From the NCBI GenBank assembly GCA_938020365.1, contig CALIIB010000107.1, positions 292-64,291 of the forward strand: a stretch of DNA of 64,000 bases. The letters run 5' to 3'. Under the pieces are notes generated by a model. The model searched no databases. It saw only the letters and a program-made list of their open reading frames with translations, and was not told the DNA's origin. The first letter of the stretch is position 1, and each line of letters starts with the position of its first letter. Of the stretch, positions 11,253 to 31,488 are shown piece by piece. The position numbers and the translations under genes are program-made. The DNA comes from an uncultured Streptococcus sp. Lineage in GTDB: Bacteria; Bacillota; Bacilli; Lactobacillales; Streptococcaceae.

Positions 11253-11352
11253 TTCCTCAAATCTGTCGCAGAAACCTGTCACCTGCGACTATTTTTCTTT
11301 CTATTATATCAAAAAAGCGAGCAAAGCTGACAGCTCTCGCTCACTTTTGCCA

Positions 11353-17165: not shown

Positions 17166-17864
17166 CTACTTCAAACTCCAGCCACCGTCGATTTTGATAA
17201 TCTCGCCCTGCATAGCAGCTGCCTTACCGCTTGCTAAAAAGAGGCTGATATCAGCTACTTCTTGAGGGTTCAGCCAGCGCTTGATCGGCGTTTCCTCAGC
17301 AACCCAGTCTGCCAGTCCGCCTGGCTCAAAATCTGCGGCAGTCATGGCTGTCTTGACAGCGCCTGGCGCCAAGCCAAAGACTTGGATATTTTTATCCGCA
17401 TAATCCAAGGCTATCTGCTTGGTCAAACCAGCCAGAGCATGCTTAGAGGCTGTATAGGCAGCACCGCCTCCGCCAGCCAAAAAACTAGCAATCGAGCACA
17501 TATTAATGATGATACCAGACTTTTTCTCCAGCATTTTCTGCAAGTAAAAGCGAGTGATTTTCATGGTTGCGGTCAGATTGAGCGCAAAAAGCTGCTCCCA
17601 ATCCTCGTCGCTGGTCTCGTGCAAGGGACGATAATCGTCCAAAATACCGGCCGTATTACAGAGAATATCCACTTCAGGCAAGCTAGTGAAGAGCGGTGTC
17701 AAATCCTCTGTCAAATCTATTTTAAAAAAACGTAGTTCATTTAGAAACCCCGGATTTTCACCCTTATCTACCCCATAAACGCGGTAGCCATTTTCCAAAA
17801 AGGTCAGAGCCTGAGCTCGGCCGATACCAGAGCTAGCTCCCGTTACCAGTACTGTCTTAGTCAT
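17166..17864 (-). CDS. SDR-family oxidoreductase
   Basis: 232 aa. Cofactor motif TGASSGIGRA and catalytic YTASKHAL. Confidence 0.85.
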   Translation of the reverse strand: MTKTVLVTGASSGIGRAQALTFLENGYRVYGVDKGENPGFLNELRFFKIDLTEDLTPLFTSLPEVDILCNTAGILDDYRPLHETSDEDWEQLFALNLTATMKITRFYLQKMLEKKSGIIINMCSIASFLAGGGGAAYTASKHALAGLTKQIALDYADKNIQVFGLAPGAVKTAMTAADFEPGGLADWVAEETPIKRWLNPQEVADISLFLASGKAAAMQGEIIKIDGGWSLK

Positions 17865-18093
17865 CCACTTCTACCCAATCTGTAGCGAGGACATCACAAG
17901 GAGTTGGACTCCACATGGAGAAGCCCTCCCCTTCGCCTGAAACATTGATGAGGAAATAAGGTGTCACCTCGAGAGCCACCCCATTCTGCTCAATCGTGTC
18001 AAAGAGCTGGACGTAGTTCTCTGCCCCACCCCAGCCTGTACGCACATATTTTTTCTTGGCCTTAAGGCCTGGTAAAATTTCTTCAAATGTCAT
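17857..18093 (-). CDS. DUF2829-family small protein
   Basis: 78 aa. The pattern LKAKKKYVRTGWGG...CDVLATDWVEV matches the remembered DUF2829 pattern (GKK-x-R-x-GW ... D-ll-A-x-DW). Overlaps the SDR start by 8 nt. Confidence 0.55.
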   Translation of the reverse strand: MTFEEILPGLKAKKKYVRTGWGGAENYVQLFDTIEQNGVALEVTPYFLINVSGEGEGFSMWSPTPCDVLATDWVEVDD

Positions 18094-18167
18094 GTTTTTC
18101 TCCTTTATCGTCTATAAACCTTGATTTGATAAGGTTTGTGAACCTCTGAAATGAGGTGGTTTTTAAA

Positions 18168-18189
18168 TTTGTTCACCTTTTTGTGGACT
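18168..18189. repeat. attL core (direct repeat)
   Basis: TTTGTTCACCTTTTTGTGGACT, identical to 31283-31304. Its last base overlaps the integrase stop codon. Confidence 0.85.
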
Positions 18190-19349
18190 TACAGGTCATT
18201 TATGGCTTTTTCGTAGTATGAAACAGCCTCTTTTTCTTTGTCCTTGGATAGGTGACTGTAGATGTCCATGGTCATAGCCAAGGTAGCATGGCCTAACCGA
18301 TATTGTAATTCTTTATAGCTGATGCCAGCATTGAGCAATAAACTAGCGTGAGTGTGGCGGAAGGCGTGAAAGGTAAAGCGGGGTATTCCAATCTCTTTGC
18401 AGCGCCGATCCAGGGAATCTTGCCTTGTGGCCATATTCTGATATTCCTTAGTCGGGATAGCAAATACTACAGACGGAGCACGCGCCCCATCTTCTACGAA
18501 TAGTTGCCTTTGCCTATTTTTGTAGAGCTTCAGCATATTGACTGTTTTCCGGTCAATACTAATCACTCTAACCCCTGCCTTACTTTTAGGTGGGCCTACT
18601 AGATCCACCAGCCTATTATAATTCTTTGATATGCTGATGGTCGCATTCTCCAAGTCAATATCAGACCACTCCAGAGCCACTGCTTCCCCAAAGCGACAGC
18701 CAGTCGCAAGCAGTAGGCTATACAGCACATAATCAAAATAATGACTGTATTTTTTGAATGCCAGCTTCTCCATATAGCCTAAAAGAGACTTCAAGTCCTC
18801 CGGAGCGATAAACTTGATTGCTTTACTCTCACGCTTTGGCTTCCTGGGCAGGATAATATCCCTCGCTGGGTTGAATGGCAAGAGCTGCAGTGAAACGCCA
18901 TATTTTAAGATACGACTATTTATCGAGTGAACCACGCCAAAGTGAACCAAGCGACTTGATAAGTCATTGATGAAACTCTGGATATAACTAGCGGCCAGTT
19001 TATCCAGCTTCATCTTTCCAAAGATTGGGACTAGGTGGCTATTCACCATTCTTTCTGTCGCTATGAAGGTTTGTGGTTTGACAGTCAGCCGGTAACTTTC
19101 TAGCCATAACTCAGCCAATTCTTGATAATTCTTCACCCGTACAGTTTTATGAACCGTTGACCCGTTCGCTTTAAAGTCAAGCTGCGCGTGCTGGGCTTTG
19201 CTCTTGACCTCTTTCCTTGTCCGTCCCGTGATACTGGTTTTTACTTTCTTACCTGTTACCTGATCCACTCCCAGATAGACACTTGCGCGATACACGTTGC
19301 TACCGTCTTTCTTTTTGACTTCTGTTATTTTCATGATATACCTTTCCAT
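18189..19349 (-). CDS. int: Tyrosine-type site-specific integrase
   Basis: 386 aa. C-terminal catalytic region ...CRFGEAVAL...HAFRHTHASLLL...LGHATLAMTMDIYSH (R..HxxR..Y). The start may be the ATG at 19334. Confidence 0.93.
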   Translation of the reverse strand: MERYIMKITEVKKKDGSNVYRASVYLGVDQVTGKKVKTSITGRTRKEVKSKAQHAQLDFKANGSTVHKTVRVKNYQELAELWLESYRLTVKPQTFIATERMVNSHLVPIFGKMKLDKLAASYIQSFINDLSSRLVHFGVVHSINSRILKYGVSLQLLPFNPARDIILPRKPKRESKAIKFIAPEDLKSLLGYMEKLAFKKYSHYFDYVLYSLLLATGCRFGEAVALEWSDIDLENATISISKNYNRLVDLVGPPKSKAGVRVISIDRKTVNMLKLYKNRQRQLFVEDGARAPSVVFAIPTKEYQNMATRQDSLDRRCKEIGIPRFTFHAFRHTHASLLLNAGISYKELQYRLGHATLAMTMDIYSHLSKDKEKEAVSYYEKAINDL

Positions 19350-19566
19350 CAGCAGGCAAGCTGTTATTAAAAAGATTTTAGATTGAATTAGGTTTATATC
19401 ATGCTAGGAGTTACGAGAACCCCTCTATTTTCGATTTTAAATAGTTAGACGGTAAATATACCAGAGAAGAAAACACGCGCTTAAACGGGCTTATATTGCG
19501 TTTTAAAACGTAGCATATTTTGGGTGAATAATCTAGGTCAAAAAATGAAATTGAGAGGATAGCAGA

Positions 19567-20553
19567 TTATTTATCTGATAGGTGCTTGATTTGTTTTTCA
19601 AAGTCCGAGTTTATCTTTTGGGTTTTGTTAAACAGTTGATACTCTGCTTTTGCTTTATCTTTCGCAGCCTTGTAAGTGATTTTCCCATGACCTTCTAAAA
19701 TATCGTATTCTTGGAAAGTCAAAAATCTGTCAATGCTTTGGGCTAGTTGCTGCATTGTCTGAGCTTTTCTTTGTTCAATTTGCCTTTCCAGGTAATCAAA
19801 GTAACTAGATATCCCTCGTTCAAGGGAACGGATCTGTTTTTCTGTTAGATAATTCTTTGCTATTTGGGTATCTGATTGCAATATACGACCGTTAGGGGAG
19901 TTTTTCCATGTTGTAAGACCCATGTTGTCTTTTGTATGATCTGCTTTCGTGTAGATGATTTCCGCAGCAGTTTGGCCAGTAATTGCATAATGGAACTTAT
20001 TCTGTACATCAGCATAGAATTGCTTAGTCAATGTACTTTGTGGAACATAGTCGATAGAGATTTCAGCGAAAATATCTGTAATCTGTAACCATATACGGCG
20101 CTCACTAGCCCGGATAGAGCGTACGCGCTCCAAGAGCTCACGGAAATAGTCTTTTTCCAGCAAGTTCTCGCCTTGCTTCAGACGCTCATCGTCCATGGCG
20201 AAACCTTTTATCATGTACTCACGAAGTACCGAAGTAGCCCACTGTCTAAACCTCGTAGCTTTTTGGGAATTGACACGGTAACCAACTGAAATGATAGCGT
20301 CAAGATTGTAGTAAGTGACTAGGTAATTCTTACCATCGGTCGCAGTTGTTTCCATTTTGGAAATAACTGAATTTTCTTCTAATTCGCCCTCTTCAAAGAT
20401 GTTTTTTAGGTGTTTACTGATTGCAGGAACACCGACATCAAAAAGTCTAGCCATTTCTTTCTGACTAGCCCAAATCGTTTCGCCTTTGATGATAACACTA
20501 GCTGTCTCGTTATCGTTGTCAGCGGTATAGATCAAGAATTGTAATTCGTTCAT
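19567..20553 (-). CDS. RhuM-family (virulence/DNA-binding) protein
   Basis: 328 aa. The N-terminus ...IWASQKEMARLFDVGVPAISKHLKNIFEEGEL...YNLDAIISVGYRVNSQKATRFRQWAT is characteristic of RhuM-family proteins. Confidence 0.75.
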   Translation of the reverse strand: MNELQFLIYTADNDNETASVIIKGETIWASQKEMARLFDVGVPAISKHLKNIFEEGELEENSVISKMETTATDGKNYLVTYYNLDAIISVGYRVNSQKATRFRQWATSVLREYMIKGFAMDDERLKQGENLLEKDYFRELLERVRSIRASERRIWLQITDIFAEISIDYVPQSTLTKQFYADVQNKFHYAITGQTAAEIIYTKADHTKDNMGLTTWKNSPNGRILQSDTQIAKNYLTEKQIRSLERGISSYFDYLERQIEQRKAQTMQQLAQSIDRFLTFQEYDILEGHGKITYKAAKDKAKAEYQLFNKTQKINSDFEKQIKHLSDK

Positions 20554-20717
20554 GAGTTCCTTTCTAAAAAATTATGAGTAGTTGAGTTACAAGCCTCTAA
20601 TATGGCGTTGAACTCCGAGCGAACGCCGAGAAATCACGCGCACTGGTGTTAAAATCGGCACTTTCGGCAGCCCTAAAAGAGTAAAAGGTTGATTTTTAGC
20701 TAGGTGGGCTGGGGTAG

Positions 20718-21332
20718 TTAAAAACCTTCATTTTTCCAATCCCTAACAAGAGGAAACATCTCTACTTTTATATCGGGAGTAAGATAGTTACCTGAGGTAC
20801 AATAATTCGAGATTTTTGTCTCTAATATATTTTTAATATCTGTTTGAAATTGTACAGGGATAGTAGATAAAAATTTTAAATTATCTTTGTAATCTTTTAC
20901 CTCTTTAGACAACTTTAGGTCGATATGAGGCTTTAAAGTCATATCAAATCCATCATGCATAGGTTCTTCATCAAACGAACCAGAGTATTCAATAGTTTTT
21001 ATTTTTGATCCATTTCTGTAAACATTCAAAAATGCATAAGCAGGATAATTGCCCCATTGCCAGCCTTCTTCAGGAATTGCTTGACTTTGACTTTCGTCCT
21101 CAAAGTCAACATCAAAAGTAAAATCAAAATCGTAAGGGATATAATCGAAAAAATCAGACGGACGAACGTCTAGAGCTCCGAGTAACTTATTTATTGTATC
21201 AATTCCTATTTTATCACTTTGGTTATTTGCTATTTTAGTTATTGTTGAACGCGCAATCCCAGTTTCATTGGATAAGTGAAGAGTTTTTATTCCTCTATCA
21301 ACCATAAGACGAGCAAGGTTATTTCTTAACAT
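20718..21332 (-). CDS. XRE-family HTH repressor with an unknown C-terminal domain (candidate island master repressor)
   Basis: 204 aa. N-terminal HTH LSNETGIARSTITKIANN. The roughly 130-aa C-terminal part matches no family I recognise. Divergent from the cro-like gene. The gene is AT-rich. Confidence 0.7.
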   Translation of the reverse strand: MLRNNLARLMVDRGIKTLHLSNETGIARSTITKIANNQSDKIGIDTINKLLGALDVRPSDFFDYIPYDFDFTFDVDFEDESQSQAIPEEGWQWGNYPAYAFLNVYRNGSKIKTIEYSGSFDEEPMHDGFDMTLKPHIDLKLSKEVKDYKDNLKFLSTIPVQFQTDIKNILETKISNYCTSGNYLTPDIKVEMFPLVRDWKNEGF

Positions 21333-21529
21333 AATTGAACTCCTTCATTGTTTAACAACATTGTAGCACAAACACTACAAAAAGAGAACTATAACTATCA
21401 AAAAAATATAAAAACTACATTTTGTTATTGACAACTACCAAAAAATATTGTAACATACACTTACCAAAGTGATAGCTAAACGCTACAAAAATATACTTTG
21501 ACCTAACAAAAAACCAAAGGAGGTTATCA
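21333..21529. promoter_or_regulatory. Divergent repressor/cro-like control region
   Basis: Rightward TTGACA (21428-21433), 17 nt, then TAACAT (21451-21456). Leftward extended -10 TGcTACAAT. Inverted repeat TTGTAG-N8-CTACAA (21359-21380), plus further CTACA(A/T) half-sites. Confidence 0.55.
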
Positions 21530-21727
21530 ATGAAGAATAATTTTCGCGTGATTTTGGCAAAAAAGCGCCTAAAAATTTCAACAGTTTCAATAGAAACAGG
21601 TATAGCAAGAAGTACTCTTATACCTTTTTATTATGAGCGTGATGTTAATCCAACCACAAAGACATTGTTAAAACTCGCTGACTATCTAGGCGTTACTATT
21701 GACGAACTACTAACACCAGAAGAATGA
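21530..21727 (+). CDS. Cro-like XRE-family HTH protein
   Basis: 65 aa with HTH VSIETGIARSTLIPFYY. SD AAAGGAGG lies upstream. Confidence 0.75.
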   Translation: MKNNFRVILAKKRLKISTVSIETGIARSTLIPFYYERDVNPTTKTLLKLADYLGVTIDELLTPEE

Positions 21728-21743
21728 GATAGGCAGGCAAACA

Positions 21744-22520
21744 ATGAAGAGGAACTACACGAGGGTCATTGATGAAATGCGAACCACTCACGGTCTGAAC
21801 TTGGTAGCTATCGGCCAACGAATAGGCATAGACCCCCGAACAGTTGGCAAGTGGGCACAGGGCAAGCATAAGCCCAACAAGGAAAGCAGAAAAAGACTAA
21901 ACAAGTTATACAGAGAGGTTAAGCAAGACATGACAACACAAGTAAGTATTTTTGAAGAGACAACAGACCAAGGGCAACTATTACAGGTTGTCACTACTAC
22001 TATTATTCACGGTCAGCCATTGGACATCTACGGCAGTGAACAGGAACCGCTATTTTTAGCTAGGGCGATTGCTGAGATGATTGACTACAGCAAAACATCA
22101 CAAGGATATTATGATGTGCAATCAATGCTAAGAAAAGTAGATGAAGATGAAAAAGTAAAAGGGACACCTTTGGACGGTACTACGGAAACTTTCCGTAGTG
22201 GTCAACAAGTTTGGTTTTTAACTGAGCATGGACTCTATGAGGTGCTTATGAGGTCAACCAAACCAAAAGCCAAAGAGTTTAAAAAAGTAATCAAGCACAT
22301 TCTGAAAGAAATCCGACTAAATGGCTACTACATGGCTGGGAAACTGGTGGAAGAACCACAGACCACTATAAAAGCCCCTGACACGTTGGCAGAGGCAGAG
22401 CGGTATTATATCGATACACTAGCCAAAGCCATTGCAGAGGCTCAAAATATGGACGAGAAGAGCCGTCTGACAAGCAAGCTAACCCGATTCATACAGGAGG
22501 TAGAACCACAATGGAACTAG
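21744..22520 (+). CDS. HTH + Bro-N domain protein (antirepressor-like)
   Basis: 258 aa. N-terminal HTH (IGIDPRTVGKWAQG), then a Bro-N-like core (...PLFLARAIAEMIDY...VWFLTEHGLYEVLMRSTKPKAKEFKKVI). Confidence 0.65.
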   Translation: MKRNYTRVIDEMRTTHGLNLVAIGQRIGIDPRTVGKWAQGKHKPNKESRKRLNKLYREVKQDMTTQVSIFEETTDQGQLLQVVTTTIIHGQPLDIYGSEQEPLFLARAIAEMIDYSKTSQGYYDVQSMLRKVDEDEKVKGTPLDGTTETFRSGQQVWFLTEHGLYEVLMRSTKPKAKEFKKVIKHILKEIRLNGYYMAGKLVEEPQTTIKAPDTLAEAERYYIDTLAKAIAEAQNMDEKSRLTSKLTRFIQEVEPQWN

Positions 22521-23140
22521 TCTACATGGACGGCAAGAAAGAGCCGTACACCACAAGCGAGATAATCTCTGAATGTGCTGGAGTACAGCACCACACTGTA
22601 ACACGCCTACTAAGAAATCACAAAGAGCGATTTACGGCGTTTGGATTTTATGGATTTGAAATCCATAAATTAGACGGAAAAGGACGACCTAAAAAGGTCT
22701 ATCGTTTAAACGAGCAACAAGCTACTCTACTAATCACTTACTTAGACAACACACCGCAAGTTGTTGAGTTCAAGACAAACCTAGTCAAAGCATTCTTTGA
22801 AATGCGGGACGAGCTAACTCAGTTTAAGCTGCAGCGTGCTTTAGAAAAGCCAAAGCGCAAGACTTTGCATGACAGCATAGAAAGCTGGAAGGAAGCTCCA
22901 AAGCACGCGCATAGCACCATTACAAACCTTTTGCTAAAAGGCACTAGCGGCATGAATAAAAAGCAACTGATGGCAGCGCGTGGCGGTCTGACAGGTATCG
23001 ATAGCTTGACCAGTACCGAGCTTGTCAGATACCAAGCCTTGGAAGATATGGCGATAGCTATGATTAACCTAGGCATGACCTATCAGGATATTAAGTCTAT
23101 GGTCTTCAGACCAAAAGAAAACGCACCACAAGGCGCGTGA
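22511..23140 (+). CDS. Rha-family phage regulatory protein
   Basis: 209 aa. EPYTTSEIISECAGVQHHTVTRLLRNHKERF...YRLNEQQATLLITYLDN is typical of the Phage_pRha family. Confidence 0.7.
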   Translation: MELVYMDGKKEPYTTSEIISECAGVQHHTVTRLLRNHKERFTAFGFYGFEIHKLDGKGRPKKVYRLNEQQATLLITYLDNTPQVVEFKTNLVKAFFEMRDELTQFKLQRALEKPKRKTLHDSIESWKEAPKHAHSTITNLLLKGTSGMNKKQLMAARGGLTGIDSLTSTELVRYQALEDMAIAMINLGMTYQDIKSMVFRPKENAPQGA

Positions 23141-23422
23141 GAGCAACAAAAAAGGCTTACCGAGACCAATCAGCAAAGCCTTTCGCACTATCACTAAAAC
23201 ATAATAAACAAGCAGGCAAGCTGTTATTAAAAGGGTTTTAGTAAAGATTTATACCTAGATTATAGCATATCTAGGACACTTTGACCATACGGAGAGCGCC
23301 AACTCTTTAAACTGGTACTTTCTCACGCTTTCAAACTTTGGCGAGTCTGAGCGTAGGGAAATCATGTATAAGAAACAACCATTCAAAAAACTCTAAATAC
23401 ATAAAAAATCGAGGTAAATACC

Positions 23423-23725
23423 ATGAAAAAACAAGACCAAAATCAAACAGTTGCTCTGACAGTTAAGCAAATCAAAGAACAAGGCCGACGTGCTACAAAC
23501 GTTATGACGAGAATAGATACTCTAAAAGGATATGCTAACAGTCTTATGCTAGCCATGGACAGCGAGCCAGATAGAACTGTTCTATTGAGCTGCCTAAATA
23601 ACTTTCTAAGCCAGGTATATGACCAGATGGATGTAGTGCATCAGGAACTAGACGCTGTGGCATATCAGCTACTGGAATGTGACAATCCAGAAGAACTAAA
23701 AGCCTATCTGAGCGCTAAAGGATGA
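23423..23725 (+). CDS. Hypothetical protein (helical)
   Basis: 100-aa ORF with SD GAGG, in the island early operon. No recognisable motif. Confidence 0.5.
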   Translation: MKKQDQNQTVALTVKQIKEQGRRATNVMTRIDTLKGYANSLMLAMDSEPDRTVLLSCLNNFLSQVYDQMDVVHQELDAVAYQLLECDNPEELKAYLSAKG

Positions 23726-23747
23726 AAAAACAGAGGGAGTTATTAAA

Positions 23748-23918
23748 ATGAGCGAGCTACTAGGTGCAATTTTAACACTACTACTTTTCTTTCTAGCTGG
23801 CGTATGTGCTGAGCTGTTTCACTCCTGGGCTATTGCTTACAGACGCCGAGGGTATATCACCAAACGGCAACTCAGAAAGATGGAAAAATGGCTTGAAACA
23901 ATGGAGGGCAGAGGATGA
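23748..23918 (+). CDS. Small membrane protein (56 aa; absent from the ORF track)
   Basis: Preceded by GGGAG. Sequence MSELLGAILTLLLFFLAGVCAELF... has one TM helix followed by a basic tail. Its stop overlaps the next ATG (ATGA). Confidence 0.5.
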   Translation: MSELLGAILTLLLFFLAGVCAELFHSWAIAYRRRGYITKRQLRKMEKWLETMEGRG

Positions 23919-24130
23919 CGGATAAAACGAATGATATTCTAGTGGACTATGAAGGGCTTTGCGGACAGTTAAAGGACATTCTGGAGGTTTTAGAATTAGC
24001 TAGCGCAGAGGAGGGGCAGAGAACTTTTCCCCTACTCCATACAGCTAACCACGCTCTAAAACAACTCATTTCAGAACACGACGCCCTAGCCGAGAAATAC
24101 CGAAAGGAGGGCGGCCATGACGGAGCTTGA
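23915..24130 (+). CDS. Hypothetical protein
   Basis: 71-aa ORF, translationally coupled on both sides. Confidence 0.5.
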   Translation: MTDKTNDILVDYEGLCGQLKDILEVLELASAEEGQRTFPLLHTANHALKQLISEHDALAEKYRKEGGHDGA

Positions 24131-24449
24131 AGAAAGAATTTTAAGATTGATACCCGTAGGGGCGGACGAGCCACGCGCAGGGCGGGATATAGCCAATGTG
24201 CTAGGGCTAGAGATGAGAGCCTTACGAGATCATATTCTCCGGCTTATCGTTCGCTATGGTATTCCCATTGTGGCCAAACGTGGGGCAAGTAACGGCTACT
24301 ATATCCCTGCTAACGATACCGAACGCCTAGTAGGTATCAGAGAGCTAAAGGCTCAGTATGACACAGAGGGAAAGCGTCTAGATGTGCTTATCAAAGCCGA
24401 TCTAGAAAGCTACAAAGAGCTGCTGAAGGGAGCTGATCAGAATGTTTAG
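24117..24449 (+). CDS. Winged-helix-like DNA-binding protein (hypothetical)
   Basis: 110 aa. The RAGRDIANVLGLEMRALRDHILRLIVRYGIPIV segment looks like a wHTH. The call is an inference. Confidence 0.45.
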   Translation: MTELEERILRLIPVGADEPRAGRDIANVLGLEMRALRDHILRLIVRYGIPIVAKRGASNGYYIPANDTERLVGIRELKAQYDTEGKRLDVLIKADLESYKELLKGADQNV

Positions 24450-24717
24450 TCTCAGCAAAGAAAGTGAATATGAGCTAACTCATGGCGTTCTGGAGCTTGT
24501 GGAGAACTATCTAGAAGCGCGTGAGAGTACAAAACCACGCTTGACAGGGTTAATTTCAGCCCAGCAAGCAATGGACGAACTGGATATAAAATATAAGACA
24601 TTGCAACGATGGGAAAAGGCGGGACTAAGACGATACAAGCCACCACTAGAGGATGCTAGGAAAATCTATTATAGAGTTTCGGACGTGCTGAAGTTTCTGG
24701 GGGTGGAAAATGGCTAG
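24442..24717 (+). CDS. Excisionase/MerR-type HTH protein (AlpA/Xis-like)
   Basis: 91 aa. ISAQQAMDELDIKYKTLQRWEKAGL...YYRVSDVLKFL resembles an HTH_17 excisionase fold. Confidence 0.55.
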   Translation: MFSLSKESEYELTHGVLELVENYLEARESTKPRLTGLISAQQAMDELDIKYKTLQRWEKAGLRRYKPPLEDARKIYYRVSDVLKFLGVENG

Positions 24718-24865
24718 CTTTGAAAGATTCCCCGGACAGAGAAAATCTGTCCGGACTACCAACGGCTACACTTGGAAAAATAGACAATTAACGCTTGAGC
24801 AACGCAAAGAGTTACAACAATTAAAGAAAATGAAAAAGAAACGATTGAAAAACCAGAAAGGATAA
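24710..24865 (+). CDS. Small basic protein (51 aa; absent from the ORF track)
   Basis: ATG overlaps the preceding stop. Sequence MASFERFPGQRKSVRTTNGYTWKNRQLTLEQRKELQQLKKMKKKRLKNQKG. Ends 3 nt before the rep ATG. Confidence 0.4.
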   Translation: MASFERFPGQRKSVRTTNGYTWKNRQLTLEQRKELQQLKKMKKKRLKNQKG

Positions 24866-24868
24866 CCA

Positions 24869-26098
24869 ATGACAGAAATTAAAAAACTAGGACAAGTTCC
24901 TGCTGAGACAATAGGGCCCTCTGCTAGCATTTTGACAGGATTGTTGAGACGCGGGCAAGTATTGGGTATATCGGCACCAAGAAGATCCTTAAAGACTAGC
25001 GTAGTTATTTCCCTAGCTCTATCTTTAGTCCAAGGGAGTAATTGGCTAGAGTGGAAGAGTAAAAGAGCTTTCAACGTCTTGTATATCAATACGAATCATA
25101 AAGAAAACGACTGTTTTAGTAAGTTCATGCAGATTGCCCAACTTTTAGAAGTTGAGCAAAAAGATCTTGACAATATTTCTATCTTAACTCTTCCAAAGTC
25201 AACGGCTTTAGAAGAGTTAGCCAAAGTTGTAAAAGATAAAGTACCAAACAACGCTTTTCAAGTGGTTATTATTGATAGTATTGATAATTTGAAATTACTA
25301 CAGTTTGGGGGCTCCTTAGGGGATTATTTGCAACAGATTAACCAACACGTAGGCGGCGGCCTGATCTATACACAAAGTCATAGAGATAGACCGAAAGGGA
25401 CTACGGAAAGTTCAGACTTTGCGCAGTGGTCAGAGTCTCTAGCTCATTGCGATAGCTTGTTGGAATTTTTCAAGATGGAATTAGATCCAGAATTGTTACG
25501 CCTAGAGAGGCTAGAAGCCGTCTGGGATTTGGCCAAGAATGTAATGACTACGCACAATAAAAGATATTTTCAGCTAAACGTAACAAATGATTATATCAGT
25601 TTTAAAAACAAGAGAGCAACAAGCGAGGATCTACGAAATCATATTGAGGTAGCGCTAGAACCTTTACCTACTGAACAGACGCAGGAAATTCTAACACATT
25701 TTGATAACATAGATTTGCCGTTAAAAACGCGAACTTATTGGAGACTTGAAGCAGTTACCTCGGAAGCTGATTACGACGGGGAGAAAAATTTTCTTTTCTA
25801 CTATCCACAGTTGATAAATGATAAGGAGAAAATATTAGCCTATCACGAACCAGGGTTACCACTTTCAAAAGAACAGAAAGAAAAAGCATGGGCTAATGAA
25901 GAAACGAAAGAAAAAGCGACAAACAAATTAAAATCTATGATAGCAAACTTTGAACAGGCGAATAATAGACTACCCAATAAGTCAGAGCTTTCTCGTTTTG
26001 CCAAAATCAGCAGACCTACCTTAGACAAATTGATTGATGAATCCGATAATAACATAGTGGTCGTCGATGGAATGATACAAGAAAACCCTGCTTATTAA
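24869..26098 (+). CDS. Replication initiator, RepA/AAA_25-like ATPase with an atypical P-loop
   Basis: 409 aa. P-loop-like GISAPRRSLKTS and Walker B VVIIDSID. Immediately followed by the iteron field, as with SaPI/PICI Rep-ori pairs. Confidence 0.6.
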   Translation: MTEIKKLGQVPAETIGPSASILTGLLRRGQVLGISAPRRSLKTSVVISLALSLVQGSNWLEWKSKRAFNVLYINTNHKENDCFSKFMQIAQLLEVEQKDLDNISILTLPKSTALEELAKVVKDKVPNNAFQVVIIDSIDNLKLLQFGGSLGDYLQQINQHVGGGLIYTQSHRDRPKGTTESSDFAQWSESLAHCDSLLEFFKMELDPELLRLERLEAVWDLAKNVMTTHNKRYFQLNVTNDYISFKNKRATSEDLRNHIEVALEPLPTEQTQEILTHFDNIDLPLKTRTYWRLEAVTSEADYDGEKNFLFYYPQLINDKEKILAYHEPGLPLSKEQKEKAWANEETKEKATNKLKSMIANFEQANNRLPNKSELSRFAKISRPTLDKLIDESDNNIVVVDGMIQENPAY

Positions 26099-26109
26099 CA
26101 ACTTTAAAC

Positions 26110-26362
26110 ATGTAAAGAGTTGTAAACTTTACAAATGTAAAAGTTGTAAAAAGGTGTAAAAAAAGTGTAAAAATTTTACATGATTTTACACCTTTACAAA
26201 CGTAAAATTTACAATCCTTTACAACTCATTGTAAAAGATGTAAAACAATTGTTTTTTTTACACTTGTAAATTATAAAACATAACTCAAAAAGCGTTGGTG
26301 TTATTGGATTTTTTAGGAGTTGTAAAGGGTTGTAAACACTTGTAAATTTTACAGATGTAAAA
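26110..26362. repeat. Iteron field / predicted island replication origin
   Basis: More than 20 copies of (T)GTAAA(A) and its complement TTTACA within about 250 bp, in two clusters (26110-26275 and 26318-26362). Confidence 0.75.
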
Positions 26363-26366
26363 CAAG

Positions 26367-26407
26367 GGACATGACTAGAATAGCCTAGCGTCAATTCTAG
26401 TTTGTCC
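26367..26407. other. 13-bp interrupted inverted repeat next to the ori
   Basis: GGACA-tg-ACTAGAAT ... ATTCTAGT-t-TGTCC. Confidence 0.5.
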
Positions 26408-26421
26408 AATTTTCGTGAAAT

Positions 26422-26492
26422 GTGGAAGTAAGGAGCAGGAACAGGGGCGATTGAGCTACGCCCCCTGTAACCCTGTCCTTTAACACTTCCAC
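26422..26492. other. GC-rich long imperfect hairpin (about 27 bp paired)
   Basis: Outer stem GTGGAAGT/ACTTCCAC, then AAGGA/TCCTT, CAGG/CCTG and CAGGGGCG/CGCCCCCTG around a 9-nt loop. Paired by hand. Confidence 0.5.
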
Positions 26493-26533
26493 GTTGCGCG
26501 GATATATATTGTAAAAAATGGAGTAGTGAACTA

Positions 26534-27010
26534 GTGGTAAAGAAGAGATTAAATAAACGAGTTATCCAAGACAAAAATTTTTTAGCCTTCAAGTCAATGC
26601 CCTACATGGAAAATATTGGAGAGGTTATTAAGTGGGCTGGTGAGAACGAACCGATGAGATATATTTTTGATAGAGTAAGAAAGTATTTAGTATTTGATAA
26701 AGCTATTTGTAAGTGGCAAGGTAGGAATTATGGAAAGCAGTCCAGGGAGTTGCTTTCTAAAACCCCACGTTTAAGGTACATCACAAAGAGTATATATGAG
26801 AAGATGGAAGAAAGTGAATTGGATCTTCTTCCACCACAAAATGGAGGTTCTGCTTCTTATATTTCTGAATGGGAAACTTTTAAAAACAGTGAGCTTGTCC
26901 AGACCTTGAAGCATGAAGACAAACTACTAAAATATTTTGTAATTTTAGCTATACAACAGGGGTATATTATTCTCGATAACCGTAAAAAATTTGTTGGTAT
27001 TGATTATTGA
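26534..27010 (+). CDS. Hypothetical protein (island cargo 1)
   Basis: 158-aa ORF from a GTG start; an alternative ATG lies at 26597. Overlaps the next ORF frame by 4 nt. No recognisable motif. Confidence 0.5.
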   Translation: MVKKRLNKRVIQDKNFLAFKSMPYMENIGEVIKWAGENEPMRYIFDRVRKYLVFDKAICKWQGRNYGKQSRELLSKTPRLRYITKSIYEKMEESELDLLPPQNGGSASYISEWETFKNSELVQTLKHEDKLLKYFVILAIQQGYIILDNRKKFVGIDY

Positions 27011-27033
27011 AAAATAGAAAAAGGAGAAATAAC

Positions 27034-27567
27034 ATGACATTAAAAAAATTTTCAGACAAAGCAAAAACATTCACTTTCACTTACGATTTTAAAGACCTAG
27101 ATACTGCTATGGTAGCAGGTCACGCGCTACTGGGATATATGACTGGAACATATTTCCAGCCTACAATCTCATTGACCTACAAGGATAAGGGAACGCTGGG
27201 CGCTGAGTATGTGGAGGATAAGAAGTTAAACAAGACCTTTAAGCGCATTTGTGACAGTTTCAAAGACTATTACAACCAACCAGTGGACGATGAAGCATTT
27301 GAAGAGCGTTACAAACAGGCGCGCGTGCTTCAACTCAAAGAGTCAGAGGACTTTGAAAGTTTGCTGAACAAGGTCGCAGCCTACGAGCTAGAGCTATTAG
27401 ACTATGCTGATTGCTTGCTTTCTGATAAGCCTATCCCTATGGAATCTATGACCGCTTTTGGTACGTTGGAAACGCTGGGCGATGAAAGTATTAGTCTACT
27501 CAAAAAGTTGGACGTAGAAGGCGAATATAAAGGCCTTGCTGGTTATGTGGCAGAGTCAGAAAGCTAG
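27034..27567 (+). CDS. Hypothetical acidic protein (island cargo 2)
   Basis: ATG at 27034 preceded by AAAGGAG. 177 aa with a strongly acidic C-terminal half. Followed by a terminator. Confidence 0.6.
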   Translation: MTLKKFSDKAKTFTFTYDFKDLDTAMVAGHALLGYMTGTYFQPTISLTYKDKGTLGAEYVEDKKLNKTFKRICDSFKDYYNQPVDDEAFEERYKQARVLQLKESEDFESLLNKVAAYELELLDYADCLLSDKPIPMESMTAFGTLETLGDESISLLKKLDVEGEYKGLAGYVAESES

Positions 27568-27576
27568 AACTATTAA

Positions 27577-27598
27577 GAGAGGCCTCAGCCTCTTTTTG
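27577..27598 (+). terminator. Rho-independent terminator
   Basis: AGAGGC-ctca-GCCTCT followed by TTTTT. Confidence 0.7.
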
Positions 27599-27652
27599 TG
27601 GCTTAATTGCTACTTATCCCAATAGATTTGGGGTTTTCTGTATATAGATATT

Positions 27653-28180
27653 TTGGAGCAGATGGAAACTATAAAATCAATAGCCATAGAGACATTTATA
27701 AAGCCTATGAAAATCAATAATATCTCTCATGGTATAGCTAAATTAGACAGCAAAAAACTAGAAATAGACTTAGATAATTTATGGATCACCCTTGGCAAAG
27801 ACTACTTTGATTTAGATAGAATATCAGGGACTAAGGGAGGCTATCTCTACTTCTTTCTATGCCCTATCTGCAGCAAGCGGTGCAGAAAACTCTTTAAGCG
27901 ACATATACTTTATGGTTGTGGATCATGCCAGAAAATACATAAGTCAACCCTAAACCGCAGTAAGACAGATTGCCAATACTATTGGGAGAGAGCACTGAGA
28001 GAGGCTAGAAAGGTAGAGCCGGGCTGGAGTCCCAAACGTGGCGGATATATGTTTGATGCTTTTCCTGAACGACCTAAGTATATGAAACGCGCCAGGTATT
28101 ATAAGCACTATCAAAAATTCCTGAACTATACTAGAAAAGGTGACAGTCTTTGGATGAATGGTTTGGGTAGATTGAGGTAG
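27653..28180 (+). CDS. Hypothetical basic zinc-ribbon protein (island cargo 3)
   Basis: 175 aa from a TTG start; an ATG lies at 27662. CPIC-x15-CGSC motif in a Lys/Arg/Tyr-rich sequence. Confidence 0.55.
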   Translation: MEQMETIKSIAIETFIKPMKINNISHGIAKLDSKKLEIDLDNLWITLGKDYFDLDRISGTKGGYLYFFLCPICSKRCRKLFKRHILYGCGSCQKIHKSTLNRSKTDCQYYWERALREARKVEPGWSPKRGGYMFDAFPERPKYMKRARYYKHYQKFLNYTRKGDSLWMNGLGRLR

Positions 28181-28431
28181 CTTCTCGGCAACTAAACGGA
28201 ATAGCTAAAGTTCTAAAAAATACCAGATTTTGGGTTATGCTGCGCGTGCTCGAACCTCGAGCGAACATAGAGAAATAGCAAAATATCCCCTGTCATTTAT
28301 CAAGCAGAGAAGGAACAAATATCTCGCCTTATCTGTTTACAACATGCTTTCAAACATGGACAATTATGGACATAACCCGCCAGTCGTCTAAAATATAAAA
28401 AGCCAAGACGCCCCGCCTCAGCTTGATCGAT

Positions 28432-28785
28432 TCATGCTTCAAAAATGAAGTTATAGAGTTGAACAACCTTCTGAAAGCTCGGTGTGTCCATGGTGGTGAT
28501 TTTTTGCGCCTGGCGTTCTCGAAAGTCGAAGGTGTAGAGCTGGAGCGGATTCACTGAGCCGTCTACCTCAGAGGATAGAACAGGAACCAGCAAGCCTAGC
28601 TTTTCTAGTTTCTTCTGGCCATGCGTAACAGGGCAGACGGCAACGAAGCCAGTGCGTTCTGAGTATTCCTTACGAGATACCACCACGGCAGGGCGGCGCT
28701 TCTGTATCTCACGCCCAACAGATGGATCAAAGTCTATCCAGATGATATCCTGCTTTTCTGGGATATAGTTAGATTTCGCTGTCAA
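28432..28785 (-). CDS. mazF: MazF/PemK-family endoribonuclease toxin
   Basis: 117 aa. The IIWIDFDPSVGREIQKRRPAVVVS...VCPVT pattern is typical of PemK/MazF. Confidence 0.85.
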   Translation of the reverse strand: MTAKSNYIPEKQDIIWIDFDPSVGREIQKRRPAVVVSRKEYSERTGFVAVCPVTHGQKKLEKLGLLVPVLSSEVDGSVNPLQLYTFDFRERQAQKITTMDTPSFQKVVQLYNFIFEA

Positions 28786-28984
28786 GTACTTTCACCCCTT
28801 CAAAGTCATTTTCCATACGGAGATCAGCCGCTTCAGCGAATGGATCTGCAATCTTTGGAGCTAGGACAATCACATTATCAACGCCCTTGTAAACGACCAT
28901 TTCTTGACCTTCCGGGACATCAAGCGCCTTAGGAATGGTCACAGTCAGAGAGTTCCCAACTTTACGGGTTTTTACTGTATTCAT
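28769..28984 (-). CDS. mazE: MazE/AbrB-SpoVT-family antitoxin
   Basis: MNTVKTRKVGNSLTVTIPKAL (SpoVT/AbrB swapped hairpin). ATG at 28984 with SD AAAGGAG. Overlaps the mazF start. Confidence 0.8.
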   Translation of the reverse strand: MNTVKTRKVGNSLTVTIPKALDVPEGQEMVVYKGVDNVIVLAPKIADPFAEAADLRMENDFEGVKVLDSEI

Positions 28985-29117
28985 TTCTTTTCTCCTTTGT
29001 TTGTATATATAAAGTATATACCGAAAAAGAGAGAAAAGCAAGCAAAAAGCCAGCCTTGCGACTGACTCCTTGGTATAGATTTAATAGATTTATTATACCA
29101 CAAGAGGAGGCCAAAGC

Positions 29118-29552
29118 GTGACACCAGAGCAAGTAAAAGCAAAGTTAGAAGGTATTAGATGGTTAGATAAAGAGATTCAGAGTTTGCAGTTAGAACTTCA
29201 GTATTTAGATCAAGGTTTATTTAAAAAATCAACTCTGACACAAACCAAAGTCCAGACTAGTAGAGTGAACAATACAGAGAATGAACTTGTCTATGTTTTG
29301 AAGTTGAAAGAAGATATACAAAACAGACTCTCCAATCTAATCAATGAACGTTTAGAAACTTCTAAACTCATTGACAAGCTGAGCGATCCTCTTGAAAGGT
29401 CAGTATTGCGGATGTTCTATGTCAATCACTTGGAAATATGGAATATCGAAGACAAGATAGAAAAGTCAAAAACTACAATTTACAGGATAAAGAGTTCAGG
29501 AATAAAGAAGCTTGCTAAGCTCATGGATGATAGAGCTTCTAAACTTACTTAG
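29118..29552 (+). CDS. DUF1492 / ArpU-like sigma-70 region-4-type transcriptional regulator
   Basis: 144 aa from a GTG start with SD GAGGAGG. Coiled-coil N-terminus. C-terminal LERSVLRMFYVNHL...KTTIYRIKSSGIKKLAKL resembles a sigma region 4 HTH. Confidence 0.55.
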   Translation: MTPEQVKAKLEGIRWLDKEIQSLQLELQYLDQGLFKKSTLTQTKVQTSRVNNTENELVYVLKLKEDIQNRLSNLINERLETSKLIDKLSDPLERSVLRMFYVNHLEIWNIEDKIEKSKTTIYRIKSSGIKKLAKLMDDRASKLT

Positions 29553-30005
29553 CAAAGCAGCTGCTTCCGCTGCTTGCCTTTTGGCCAAATGCTTCAGGCT
29601 ATCACTTATACTGTTCAACATTCGGAAACTACCCCTATTTTTTGAACGGGGCTATATTGTTTCGGTTTTAAAGGACGCGGCCTTTTCCGTGCGAAAAATT
29701 CCCTTTTTGAAACTTTAAAGCCATAATATAAACATGATAAGACCAACCTTTCAAGCTAGTCTAACAGCTACAATACTACCCCTTTCTGCTTCAGAGTTGA
29801 TTCATAAGGTGCGTTACCCCCCGCCCCTATGTGGTGGATAAGAGAGCCGCAACAAACTCTCGTCTTACATCACGCGCCATTTTTTCAAATTTTTAGGTAG
29901 GGGGGTAGAACCTAAAAAACATTGATAATACAAGATTTTTAGTCTCGTTATACATAAAAGCGCTCCTGTTTTAGGACTTGTTTCACCGCTAATATCGCCT
30001 TTTAG

Positions 30006-30034
30006 TTGAATACGTGTAACACGTATGATATAAT
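30006..30034 (+). promoter_or_regulatory. hicAB promoter with embedded palindromic operator
   Basis: TTGAAT (30006-30011), 17 nt, then TATAAT (30029-30034). The spacer contains the perfect palindrome ACGTGT-A-ACACGT (30012-30024). Confidence 0.65.
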
Positions 30035-30059
30035 TATCTTGTCAGGAGGTAAAAGCGCT

Positions 30060-30242
30060 ATGCCTATGACACAAAAAGAAATGGTTAAGTTACTGACTGC
30101 CCACGGTTGGATAAAGACCAAAGGCGGCAAGGGGTCGCACGTTAAGCTTGAAAAAGCTGGAGAGCGACCTATAACCATTCCCCACGGTGAGATTAACAAA
30201 TACACCGAAAGGGGTATCAAAAAGCAAGCAGGGCTGTTATAG
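30060..30242 (+). CDS. hicA: HicA-family mRNA interferase toxin
   Basis: MPMTQKEMVKLLTAHGWIKTKGGKGSHVKLEK...ITIPHG. SD AGGAGG lies 8 nt upstream of the ATG at 30060. Confidence 0.85.
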   Translation: MPMTQKEMVKLLTAHGWIKTKGGKGSHVKLEKAGERPITIPHGEINKYTERGIKKQAGLL

Positions 30243-30279
30243 TGACAGCCTACCGCTTGTTTTCTTTTGGAGGTAAACT

Positions 30280-30732
30280 ATGCTTGTCACTTATCCAGCT
30301 TTATTTTATTATGATGATACAGATGGAGCTAATGCTCCTTACTTTGTCACTTTCCCAGACTTTGAGCATTCAGCAACCCAAGGTGAGGATATGGCAGACG
30401 CTATGGCAATGGCTAGCGATTGGTTAGGTATTAACCTAGCGGACTATATCGAGAATGGGCGAGATATTCCCACTCCTAGCCCTATTAACACCTTATCTTT
30501 AGCTGATAATAATCCTTTTCGCGATGATGAGGGTATAACACTGACTTATGACCCCAGCAAATCCTTTGTCTCAATGGTTATGGTTGACGTTGCCGAGTAT
30601 CTAGGCAGCCAAGAGCCTGTAAAGAAAACACTCACTATCCCACGTTGGGCAGATAATCTAGGGCGTGAATTAGGTTTGAACTTCTCACAGACCCTAACAG
30701 ACGCTATTGCTGATAAAAAAATCCATGCTTAA
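30280..30732 (+). CDS. hicB: HicB-family antitoxin
   Basis: 150 aa. N-terminal YPALFYYDDTD..YFVTFPDF..ATQGEDMADAMAMASDWL is a HicB fold. C-terminal RHH-like TIPRWADNLGRELGLNFSQTL. Confidence 0.85.
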   Translation: MLVTYPALFYYDDTDGANAPYFVTFPDFEHSATQGEDMADAMAMASDWLGINLADYIENGRDIPTPSPINTLSLADNNPFRDDEGITLTYDPSKSFVSMVMVDVAEYLGSQEPVKKTLTIPRWADNLGRELGLNFSQTLTDAIADKKIHA

Positions 30733-30848
30733 TAATTAACTATGATATAATTGACTTATAAACAGAGCTTTTCCATCTCCCCTTGAAACAGACTTTTCTG
30801 CGGTAGGAGGTGGGACGGTTCTGTTTTTACCATAAAGGAGTATTTAAC

Positions 30849-31058
30849 ATGGCAAAAGTTAAAGAAAAATGGAACCCAACAATATCCCATATTGTCCCTA
30901 AAGGTACCAAACTAGCAGACGGTACAATATTAGACAAAGAAACAGCCTTAACACAAGAAGAATTTGCTAAAAATCCCCCTGTTATTCCGAAAGGACACTC
31001 TTTTTATAATATTTGGAATAGAATTCTCAGAGAAAAGATAGAAAAAGACGAATTATAA
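30849..31058 (+). CDS. Hypothetical small protein
   Basis: 69 aa from the ATG at 30849, with SD AAAGGAG. No motif recognised. Confidence 0.5.
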   Translation: MAKVKEKWNPTISHIVPKGTKLADGTILDKETALTQEEFAKNPPVIPKGHSFYNIWNRILREKIEKDEL

Positions 31059-31117
31059 AAATACAGTAGGCTTGCGCGTGATAATCGCGTGAATCAGTAT
31101 TGTTGACGTTAACATAA

Positions 31118-31145
31118 TTGATAACCACGCGCTCCATGGTATAAT
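31118..31145 (+). promoter_or_regulatory. Strong outward-facing promoter at the island right end
   Basis: TTGATA, 16 nt, then TGgTATAAT (extended -10). No SD-led ORF lies downstream. Confidence 0.55.
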
Positions 31146-31212
31146 ATACCTATCAGCAATCAGAAACTAAAGTATGGAAAAGTATGTACATATTTCGTCA
31201 GAAAACAAAAAA

Positions 31213-31238
31213 AGCACCTTGTGGGGTGCTAGTTTCTT
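31213..31238 (+). terminator. Terminator-like hairpin 1
   Basis: AGCACC-ttgtgg-GGTGCT followed by AGTTTCTT. Confidence 0.5.
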
Positions 31239-31263
31239 GCCTGCTGAACTCATCAAATTTCAC

Positions 31264-31285
31264 GCCCTTTTTGAGGGCTTTTTTT
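31264..31285 (+). terminator. Rho-independent terminator abutting attR
   Basis: GCCCT-ttttg-AGGGC followed by TTTTTTT. The T-run runs into the att repeat. Confidence 0.65.
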
Positions 31286-31304
31286 GTTCACCTTTTTGTG
31301 GACT
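31283..31304. repeat. attR core (direct repeat)
   Basis: TTTGTTCACCTTTTTGTGGACT, identical to 18168-18189. Confidence 0.85.
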
Positions 31305-31488
31305 CCTGAAGAATATCAAAGATGAACTAATATTGGTATTCTTGCTGTAAACCGCTATAAACCACTGTAAAGAGACACTAAAGAATATATAAAATCATGG
31401 TTTTTCTAAATTTCTTCAAATGTCATAGTTTTCTCCTTTTGTTTATTAATACTCTTATCAAAATATGCTACTAGCAGTCATAGGTATT

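Follow-up and report, generated by a model that had tools for sequence, protein, structure and literature searches.

A probable 13.3-kb phage satellite at the start of a Tad2-like gene in Streptococcus, with two homologues of phage cos regions

The window analyzed here is the whole 64,000-nt stretch of DNA, from an uncultured Streptococcus (contig CALIIB010000107.1). It harbors an island of 13,333 bp (18107-31439, counting one attachment core) that lies between the start of a chromosomal DUF2829 gene, a family now named Tad2-like in Pfam, and a group of GNAT genes (Table 1). From left to right, the island carries a tyrosine integrase gene (int), a RhuM-family gene, two divergent helix-turn-helix (HTH) regulators, Bro-N and Rha genes, small early open reading frames (ORFs), a replication gene (rep) with an adjoining iteron field, three function-unassigned genes, and the toxin-antitoxin (TA) module MazEF. 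Its right part holds a DUF1492 gene, two homologues of phage cos regions, the TA module HicAB, and a candidate small RNA (sRNA) unit. All ORFs are intact, and the coding share is 79%. We find that this island is most probably a phage satellite resembling phage-inducible chromosomal islands (PICIs).

Table 1. Features of the island and its attachment sites, by position in the window. L followed by a number denotes a compared locus.
Feature	Position	Strand	Basis and remarks
Tad2-like (Thoeris anti-defence 2-like, DUF2829) gene	17857-18106	-	Integration target at gene start; overlaps SDR gene
attL core, 32 nt	18075-18106		Core read on minus strand of Tad2-like gene; 30/32 repeat; single copy in L005, L008, L133, L134
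Left (int-proximal) attP arm, 61 nt	18107-18167		Conserved block AAATCAAsGTTTATAGAC adjoins core; alignment of 31 int-proximal junctions; first 23 nt post-core in L146
Left 22-mer	18168-18189		Two tandem 11-mers, in gene orientation AGTCCACAAAA-AGGTGAACAAA; exact repeat; proposed arm-type Int-binding sites
Tyrosine integrase	18189-19349	-	Pfam Phage_integrase 1.4e-24, Phage_int_SAM_3 3.8e-17
int promoter and leader	19350-19405	-	Extended -10 CATGATATAAA; leader carries CUUGCCUGCUG
RhuM-family protein, accessory, defence candidate	19567-20553	-	Pfam Virulence_RhuM 2.9e-101; PADLOC PDC-S05 5e-151
Stl-like master repressor candidate (XRE/HTH_26)	20718-21332	-	N-terminal HTH_26, C-terminal domain without assignment; divergent from cro-like gene
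Divergent promoter/operator region	21333-21529		CTACAAAAA-type repeats; facing promoter-like sites 21428-21456(+), 21434-21405(-)
cro-like HTH_26 regulator	21530-21727	+	Pfam 7.4e-11
Bro-N/HTH protein	21744-22520	+	Pfam Bro-N 3.8e-17; antirepressor-like
Rha protein	22511-23140	+	Pfam Phage_pRha 9.3e-18; antirepressor-like
Mid-island promoter-leader copy	23211-23287	-	Promoter TGCTATAAT and CUUGCCUGCU leader
Small early ORFs	23423-24865	+	PHROG 2113 (24117-24449), PHROG 10458, Xis-like HTH
Xis-like HTH protein	24442-24717	+	Weak Pfam HTH_17/MerR_1; PHROG 66 'excisionase and transcriptional regulator' 1.4e-5
Rep, AAA_25/DnaB-like helicase-initiator	24869-26098	+	Pfam AAA_25 6.4e-8; PHROG 2597 positions 341-738/747 (helicase half)
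Replication origin	26100-26365		Two iteron sets (TGTAAA/TTTACA) around AT-rich spacer
Three function-unassigned proteins	26534-27010, 27034-27567, 27653-28180	+	Position of PICI interference/packaging genes
MazF toxin	28432-28785	-	Pfam PemK_toxin 1.2e-20
MazE antitoxin	28769-29041	-	Pfam MazE_antitoxin 1.6e-6
DUF1492/ArpU-like, sigma-70 region-4-like transcription regulator	29118-29552	+	Pfam DUF1492 4.6e-16; PHROG 36 'transcriptional regulator' 9e-25; weak NCBIfam ArpU
cos-region homologue A	29612-29721	+	~82% identity, HNH-terS intergenic region of ~40-kb 315.2-type phages
cos-region homologue B	29816-29898	+	78% identity to phage 7201 AF145054 11271-11353, spanning annotated 'cos site'
HicA toxin and HicB antitoxin	30006-30732	+	Pfam HicA_toxin 2.7e-14, HicB_lk_antitox 8.9e-8
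BOW99_gp33-family small protein	30810-31058	+	NCBIfam NF047423 5.6e-17
Conserved small transcription unit, candidate sRNA	31118-31282	+	Extended -10 promoter, covarying hairpin, invariant hairpin AGUUC-[UUGCCUGCU]-GAACU, covarying terminator
Right 22-mer	31283-31304		Arm-type site pair, distal arm; exact repeat; motif also distal in many islands
Right attP arm, 103 nt	31305-31407		Equal 103-nt spacing in S. castoreus L023; contiguous with core and left arm in L146
attR core	31408-31439		Identical to attB of same-species empty sites

The gene order is that of a PICI. The integrase lies at one end, and its true start is probably an internal MKITEV at about 19334. The putative repressor and the cro-like gene diverge from facing promoter-like sites, around which four CTAC(A/C)AAAAA-type repeats (21360-21500) form candidate operators. 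Rep is followed immediately by the predicted origin. We detect no primase domain in Rep, and its homologue in the satellite Javan319 is annotated as a replicative DNA helicase. The 281 nt from 26090 to 26370 contain 21 TGTAAA/TTTACA hexamers versus about 0.17 expected, with a phasing of about 10 bp and a spacer of 75% A+T; this predicted arrangement is the layout of a SaPI-type origin. A preliminary description of the same DNA, made from the letters alone, had proposed a divergent XRE repressor/cro-like switch, Bro-N, Rha, and excisionase-like HTH genes, and a Rep ATPase followed by iterons. Family searches and the hexamer count bear out each of these assignments, although the excisionase-like HTH match is weak.

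The ends of the island are not where they first appear to be. The preliminary description had rested on a perfect 22-bp direct repeat, TTTGTTCACCTTTTTGTGGACT, which it took as attL and attR of a 13.1-kb island (18168-31304). The repeat is genuine: there are exactly two copies, none is expected by chance, and no shuffle gave a match. A repeat search, however, also found an outer direct repeat of 32 nt that had been missed, with 30 of 32 positions identical between its two copies (18075-18106 and 31408-31439). Along the plus strand, the order is thus core, 61 nt, 22-mer, island, 22-mer, 103 nt, core. The 32-bp core comprises the ribosome-binding site, the ATG, and the first six codons of the Tad2-like gene, and the island truly ends at 18075/18107 on the left and 31407/31439 on the right.

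Empty sites in other strains identify the core. In two contigs that encode an identical Tad2-like protein (L005 and L008), the gene for this protein comes directly after a GNAT gene. Two same-species contigs with an identical GNAT protein (L133 and L134) have an intergenic region of 62 bp at this place. In base-level alignments, the empty site follows the right flank of the window into one core and continues along the left flank. The junctions of L133 and L134 read straight through a single core, with no 22-mer within the aligned stretch. The 22-mer is likewise missing from all 10 loci fetched via the Tad2-like protein, including L005 and L008. When the window flanks are joined at one core into a synthetic empty site, a single 2,048-bp alignment of 95% spans the junction. 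The preliminary description had predicted an empty site with one 22-mer between the DUF2829 and GNAT genes; what the same and related species carry is one 32-bp core only. It was nevertheless right that the int stop codon touches the left repeat (the two overlap by 1 nt), even though that repeat is not attL.

Both attB and attR carry the variant AAAACTATG, while attL carries AAAAACATG. This places the exchange downstream of the variant bases, we infer, within ATGACATTTGAAGAAATTT. About 25 islands across species occupy the start of the Tad2-like gene. Judged from these junctions, the island was inserted by site-specific recombination at the 32-bp core, and its insertion rebuilds the 5′ end of the Tad2-like gene.

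A search with an attP-specific pattern also recovered one metagenome contig with an attP-type junction, in the order right arm, core, left arm (ODYD01009031.1, L146). Over the right arm and the core, this contig follows a sister island at 96% identity; past the core, it matches 23 of 23 nt of the left arm rather than the chromosome. A circle, a concatemer, or a tandem would give such a pattern. Scans of IMG/VR for two 22-mers 185 to 210 nt apart, the expected attP signature, and for the exact arm-core-arm junction returned no match.

The most obvious perfect repeat is therefore internal to the element, which makes it a trap for delimitation: boundaries based on that repeat miss the real core and the arms, as do the deposited Javan records. 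The deposited Javan114 (L011, MK448321) runs from the int stop codon to 21 nt past the right 22-mer (1 and 13588-13630), so that this record lacks both arms and the real attachment core. Boundaries across the Javan collection may be systematically short.

The island already belongs, by homology, to a catalogued family of streptococcal satellites, and what is new is its mosaic combination of parts. It matches 157 phage-database records, all from Streptococcus, in a mosaic pattern. The best 25 of these are 'Streptococcus satellite phage Javan' entries and the 12.9-kb 'phage MissB2'. Javan114, from S. cristatus CC5A, is the top match (41% coverage, 93.5% identity), and Javan62 is also among the best. 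Gene order, too, is common to the island and the Javan satellites, which were catalogued by Rezaei Javan et al. in 2019 (PMC6813308). This is thus not an undescribed element. In full-size phages, the nucleotide match to the island is confined to the cos-region segment. Among integrase relatives from species-representative genomes, an identical Int is encoded in an S. cristatus metagenome-assembled genome; because of this identity, the host is most likely S. cristatus.

Sensitive profile searches of the island ORFs (Pfam, PHROGs, and NCBIfam) detected no capsid, portal, tail, terminase, or lysin families, and no holin or head-tail genes, components that are forbidden in PICIs. The small terminase gene (terS) is likewise missing from these searches, and a tblastn comparison of the fragment annotated as 'terS' in Javan62 with the island gave no real match. 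We find no capsid-morphogenesis gene by family (Pfam and PHROGs) or by fold, the folds searched being those of the 175-aa and 177-aa proteins. Family and fold searches also gave no homologue of the Ccm-type capsid proteins that serve small capsids. The proposal of an integrase-borne, PICI-like satellite with an int-stl-cro-xis-rep-ori layout and without virion genes, rather than a degraded prophage, agrees with these results and with the Javan matches. The SatelliteFinder core of a PICI consists of integrase, regulator, primase-replicase, capsid morphogenesis, and terS (PMC10085698). By its predicted genes, the island corresponds to 'Type C' of that scheme, as do most StCIs of S. thermophilus (PMC13376191).

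Two segments in the right part of the island suggest how it might be packaged. The 453-bp gap between the DUF1492 gene and hicA (29553-30005) is non-coding and holds both phage cos-region homologues. Homologue A resembles the cos region of 315.2-type phages; in 315.2 itself, we confirmed the neighboring HNH, Terminase_4, and TerL genes. Homologue B aligns with the cohesive-end junction of phage DT1, and the corresponding segment of phage 7201 lies between the HNH gene and terS. Other satellites hold homologue A, homologue B, or both. The DUF1492 gene, which had been regarded as cargo, probably is not, since it adjoins these two segments, unseen in the preliminary description. By homology, the island thus carries a cos copy in place of terS, the feature of the SaPIbov5 class. 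Satellites without terS that borrow the cos site of their helper are known from SaPIbov5, and SaPIbov4 and EcCICFT073 are reported with two cos sites (PMC5052747 and PMC6092414).

We propose the following life cycle. The Stl-like HTH repressor facing the cro-like gene would hold the island silent until a helper-phage protein lifts repression, as in S. thermophilus StCI-301. Both the Stl-inducer interaction and excision have been demonstrated for StCIs (PMC13376191). The rightward operon would then supply the Bro-N and Rha regulators, the Xis-like HTH protein, and the Rep helicase, and Rep would fire the iteron origin immediately downstream. HNH-type cos phages could cut the resulting concatemers at one or the other cos copy (29612-29721 or 29816-29898) and package them. 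No terS would be needed, because the phage cos-region copies would serve packaging. The 13.3 kb of the island amount to about a third of a 35- to 41-kb helper genome.

Alternatively, natural transformation might be the main way in which the island spreads once a phage has triggered its excision and replication, the cos-like DNA then being a relic or regulatory region. S. thermophilus StCIs are induced by a phage protein and moved by competence without packaging (PMC13376191). The island has no detected terS or capsid-remodelling gene, and its attP or circle was not found in the IMG/VR virome collection. S. cristatus is one of the naturally competent oral streptococci. However, two separate cos-region homologues are kept in non-coding DNA across many satellites, which argues for selection, and the island has about a third of the size of a helper genome. 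We consider transformation possible but unlikely as the main route. The two routes are not exclusive.

What, then, is the 22-mer? It lies 61 and 103 nt inside the two cores and consists of two tandem 11-mers. The integrase has 241 relatives in Streptococcus genomes. In about 28 islands from many species, with Int identities of 63 to 100%, the 22-mer is invariant from the int stop codon, whereas the spacer beside it drifts and the chromosomal core shows up to 5 mismatches. The 22-mer recurs in the distal arm of Javan114, of an S. castoreus island (L023, at 103 nt from the core), and of many satellite-sized IMG/VR contigs, some of which have different arms and cores. More distant integrases carry other motifs. 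A lineage with about 52% Int identity has GGGGAGCAAAA-AGGGGAGCAAA at the position of the 22-mer, repeated at the far end beside a different core, AAAAGGCCGATTTTGTAGTATAATA, and the motif GGGGAGCAAAAAGGGGAGCAAA of that lineage is found at the 22-mer position and again distally. Further lineages (L033, L038, L079, and L080) have two copies of GGTGAACTAAAA, GGGTGAACAAAA-AGGGGAACAAA, or GTACGAAAAAA-GGTACACAAAA. In where they lie, how often and in which orientation they occur, and how they change with the integrase, these motifs look like arm-type sites of the P and P′ arms. The 22-mer is thus a probable pair of tandem 11-bp arm-type Int-binding sites, one pair per attP arm.

The arrangement resembles lambda-family and Tn916-type recombination, where the core is flanked by direct-repeat arm sites that lie away from the crossover and covary with the integrase lineage. 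It differs in that the left site abuts the int stop codon and in the unusually strict conservation of the predicted sites, which are identical at 22 of 22 positions across Ints that are only 63% identical.

The 22-mer copies might instead be mimics of cos sites, since they contain CCACAAAAAGGTG, which is similar to the DT1 cos overhang CCACCACAAGGTG. This 13-mer part matches DT1 cos at 11 of 13 positions, and two similar 13-mers in StCI-301 (12 of 13) are described as 'two putative cos sites' (PMC13376191). We regard this reading as improbable. The surroundings of the 22-mer show no similarity to the real DT1 cos flanks beyond the 13-mer, while a longer and better cos homologue lies elsewhere in the island (29816-29898). 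The motifs of other lineages (GGGGAGCAAAA twice, GGTGAACTAAAA twice) lose the cos-like sequence but keep the tandem 11-mer layout on two arms. In IMG/VR, furthermore, the exact 22-mer is restricted to satellite-sized contigs of at most 23 kb.

Three other readings of the region are weaker still. The Bro-N, Rha, and DUF1492 genes, the HTH regulators, and the cos region have phage homologues, as a decayed prophage remnant would, rather than an autonomous satellite; the intact ORFs and high coding share, the lack of detected virion, lysis, or terminase fragments, a compact architecture that recurs in more than 150 elements from many species, the precise empty sites, and the attP junction make this very improbable. 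An integrative mobilizable element moved by conjugation, some of which also have an integrase, a Rep-like ATPase, and TA modules, is even less likely, given that no relaxase, coupling-protein, or oriT-associated family was found in any ORF (Pfam, PHROGs, and NCBIfam) and that phage-type regulators and cos homologues are present. Equally hard to credit is the initial view of the 22-mer as the true attachment core: it brackets the genes as a perfect direct repeat, touches the int stop codon, and lies near the trimmed ends of the GenBank Javan114 record, but the empty sites, which lack it, refute this view, the arms of the attP-type contig meet at the 32-bp core while its two 22-mers lie inside, and the identical 22-mer flanks islands with other cores and target genes.

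Taken together, a 13,333-bp, PICI-like phage satellite of the streptococcal 'satellite prophage'/StCI family in S. cristatus is the best joint explanation, to which we assign a probability of about 0.78. Several points weigh against it. The island holds three of the five SatelliteFinder core components of a PICI (integrase, regulator, and replication module), and a search of the rest of the window found no helper prophage. The attP-type contig ends 23 nt beyond the core, and a tandem array, or a chimera if it was assembled with k ≤ 32, could explain it. The conserved Int residues 1 to 75 match no Pfam arm-binding family at E ≤ 0.01, and Morency et al. took the related 13-mer in StCI-301 as a putative cos site (PMC13376191). 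The cos assignment is a similarity of 78 to 82% to phage regions. Experiments have defined just one of these, the 7201/DT1 site, and the island equivalent of the 13-nt DT1 overhang differs from it at 5 positions. Finally, induction, replication, cos cleavage, and transfer of the island are predictions from sequence.

Comparison with named systems places the island more precisely. With Javan114 and Javan62 it shares the host genus, the integrase (about 93% nucleotide identity), the 22-mer at the right end, and a backbone of int, regulators, Rha, small ORFs, replicase, a FIG01115581 protein, and MazEF. It differs in the mosaic nature of the match, which leaves 41% of the island covered, and in having RhuM, not their left-end cargo. 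Its Rep is helicase-only, whereas theirs has primase and helicase, and it has an additional HicAB module and a second cos-type segment. The S. thermophilus StCIs described by Morency et al. in 2026 (PMC13376191; SatelliteFinder Type C/D) resemble the island in that they combine int with Stl-type regulators and a replication module and lack terS and capsid genes, and both have the 7201/DT1-type cos segment (Javan604, strain DGCC7710). The StCIs, in contrast, have another host species and other integration sites and cargo, and their transfer was shown by competence. SaPIbov5, SaPIbov4, and EcCICFT073 also lack terS, carry a copy of the helper cos site, and are packaged by HNH-type cos phages (PMC5052747 and PMC6092414). 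Unlike them, the island has no detected Ccm-like homologue, and its two predicted cos segments resemble two phage lineages rather than duplicates of each other.

The RhuM, MazEF, and HicAB genes and the three function-unassigned genes may be accessory or interference cargo, and might, as the preliminary description suggested, include a defence function. The function-unassigned proteins (26534-28180) have no matches in Pfam, NCBIfam, or PADLOC, and the homologues of the 177-aa and 175-aa proteins (27034-27567 and 27653-28180) are confined to Streptococcus. PDB sequence searches with four island proteins gave no significant match. The AlphaFold models of the 175-aa and 177-aa proteins (pLDDT 82.8 and 65.7, respectively) show no virion-like fold. 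For the 177-aa protein, the fold search returned only a generic ferredoxin-like/Pcc1-like N-terminal domain (E = 2.6e-3). The 175-aa protein has four conserved cysteines (CxxC...CxxC), and its model has a well-predicted β-rich N-terminal domain and a helical hairpin. Its best fold matches have E values of 0.3 (PDB) and 0.04 (BFVD), with TM scores of at most 0.24. Matches to the ADP-ribose-binding WWE domain recur in both databases at low probability; none is significant, and we made no use of them.

Cargo appears to be exchanged on the right side of the island. The sister islands L136 and L139, at the same site, lack HicAB, and L146 has 657 nt of different DNA in place of window positions 29722-31122. 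This points to a hotspot of cargo swapping that reaches from cos-region homologue A to the sRNA-like unit.

The sRNA-like unit is kept in 45 distinct satellite right ends, including a distant int lineage. Its promoter (31118-31145) matches the extended -10 consensus at 11 of 12 positions, an invariant block, TTCTTGCCTGCTGAACTC, lies between hairpin and terminator, and the T-run of the terminator enters the right 22-mer. RNAalifold predicts three hairpins: across 23 distinct sequences, 96.7% of cells pair, versus at most 34% with slid partners. Two pairs of hairpin 1 switch completely (GC/AU 12:11 and UA/CG 12:10), and none of 500 shuffles reached the covariation score. Both covarying hairpins may be nothing more than terminators; what speaks for an RNA is the conserved promoter and the invariant middle hairpin. 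The unit has no match in Rfam, and a search of the literature gave no paper with its invariant 18-mer. At E ≤ 1, Rfam returned a sub-threshold L20-leader (29549-29647) and a CRISPR-repeat match within the island, which we treated as chance.

The motif CUUGCCUGCUG links the right-end unit to two other sites. It occurs in the int leader (19351-19361, reverse complement), at mid-island (23211-23221, reverse complement), and at the right end (31237-31247), and the first two copies are part of a 31-nt direct repeat (19351-19381 and 23211-23241). Three extended -10 promoters are each followed by the motif CTTGCCTGCTG, in every case in the transcribed orientation. Of 61 integrase loci, 59 have CUUGCCUGCUG in the 90 nt upstream of int, and 53 of the 61 have a second copy in the same sense. 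A complementary 8-mer is found at the Bro-N ribosome-binding site (21733-21740), with a predicted duplex of -26.1 kcal/mol. A stem in the int leader is predicted to sequester the Shine-Dalgarno sequence, although both of its strands are invariant and thus give this prediction no compensatory support.

These features suggest, tentatively, that streptococcal satellites share a hitherto undescribed RNA-based control circuit built on CUUGCCUGCUG loops, an idea we think has less than an even chance of being correct. The constitutive right-end sRNA (about 31150-31282), the int leader, and the leftward mid-island transcript would all expose a CUUGCCUGCUG loop, and the induced rightward early transcript would carry a complementary hairpin, CAGC-AGGCAA-GCUG (23210-23223). 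Through pairing between the loops, integrase translation could then be tied to derepression, with the right-end RNA as a competitor or immunity factor, in loose analogy to P4 CI RNA and P1 c4 RNA. The motif could serve either such an RNA-RNA circuit or a protein-operator circuit.

The chromosomal neighborhood of the island is itself variable. An identical 78-aa Tad2-like protein is indexed in 9,712 assembly blocks. Integration parts the Tad2-like/SDR pair from the upstream GNAT genes, and the pair now lies 83 nt behind int, with no minus-strand terminator predicted between int and the Tad2-like gene. In three loci from other complete streptococcal genomes, fetched via the Tad2-like protein (L002, L003, and L010, at about 5000-9900), the interval between GNAT and Tad2-like genes holds a variable cluster of TipC and DUF443 genes and a gene for a protein of 318 to 321 aa. 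In L008, an AbiH gene is inserted 3′ of the SDR gene (10940-12496). From these gene contents, the neighborhood is a variable, defence-type hotspot even where it has no satellite.

Two further observations concern the window outside the island. Its sole tRNA gene, a tRNA-Leu (anticodon aag) at 115-200(-), is unrelated to the attachment site. Positions 1023-2516 have about 71% nucleotide identity to short, unannotated records named 'Listeria phage LM 4-11-1/4-14-1', a match that probably reflects conserved bacterial DNA within those records rather than phage DNA.

As such, the island is unremarkable. Streptococcal satellites have been deposited by the hundreds, and cos-type PICIs are known. Here, a mobile element occupies the start codon of a Tad2-like (anti-Thoeris-type) gene of the chromosome, and this gene is severed from its upstream operon and placed behind int. 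The right-end RNA-like unit and the three copies of CUUGCCUGCUG, neither of which is in Rfam, could be a general regulatory feature of the satellite family. Furthermore, cos regions borrowed from two phage lineages offer a testable account of how the many terS-less 'Type C' streptococcal satellites may be packaged.

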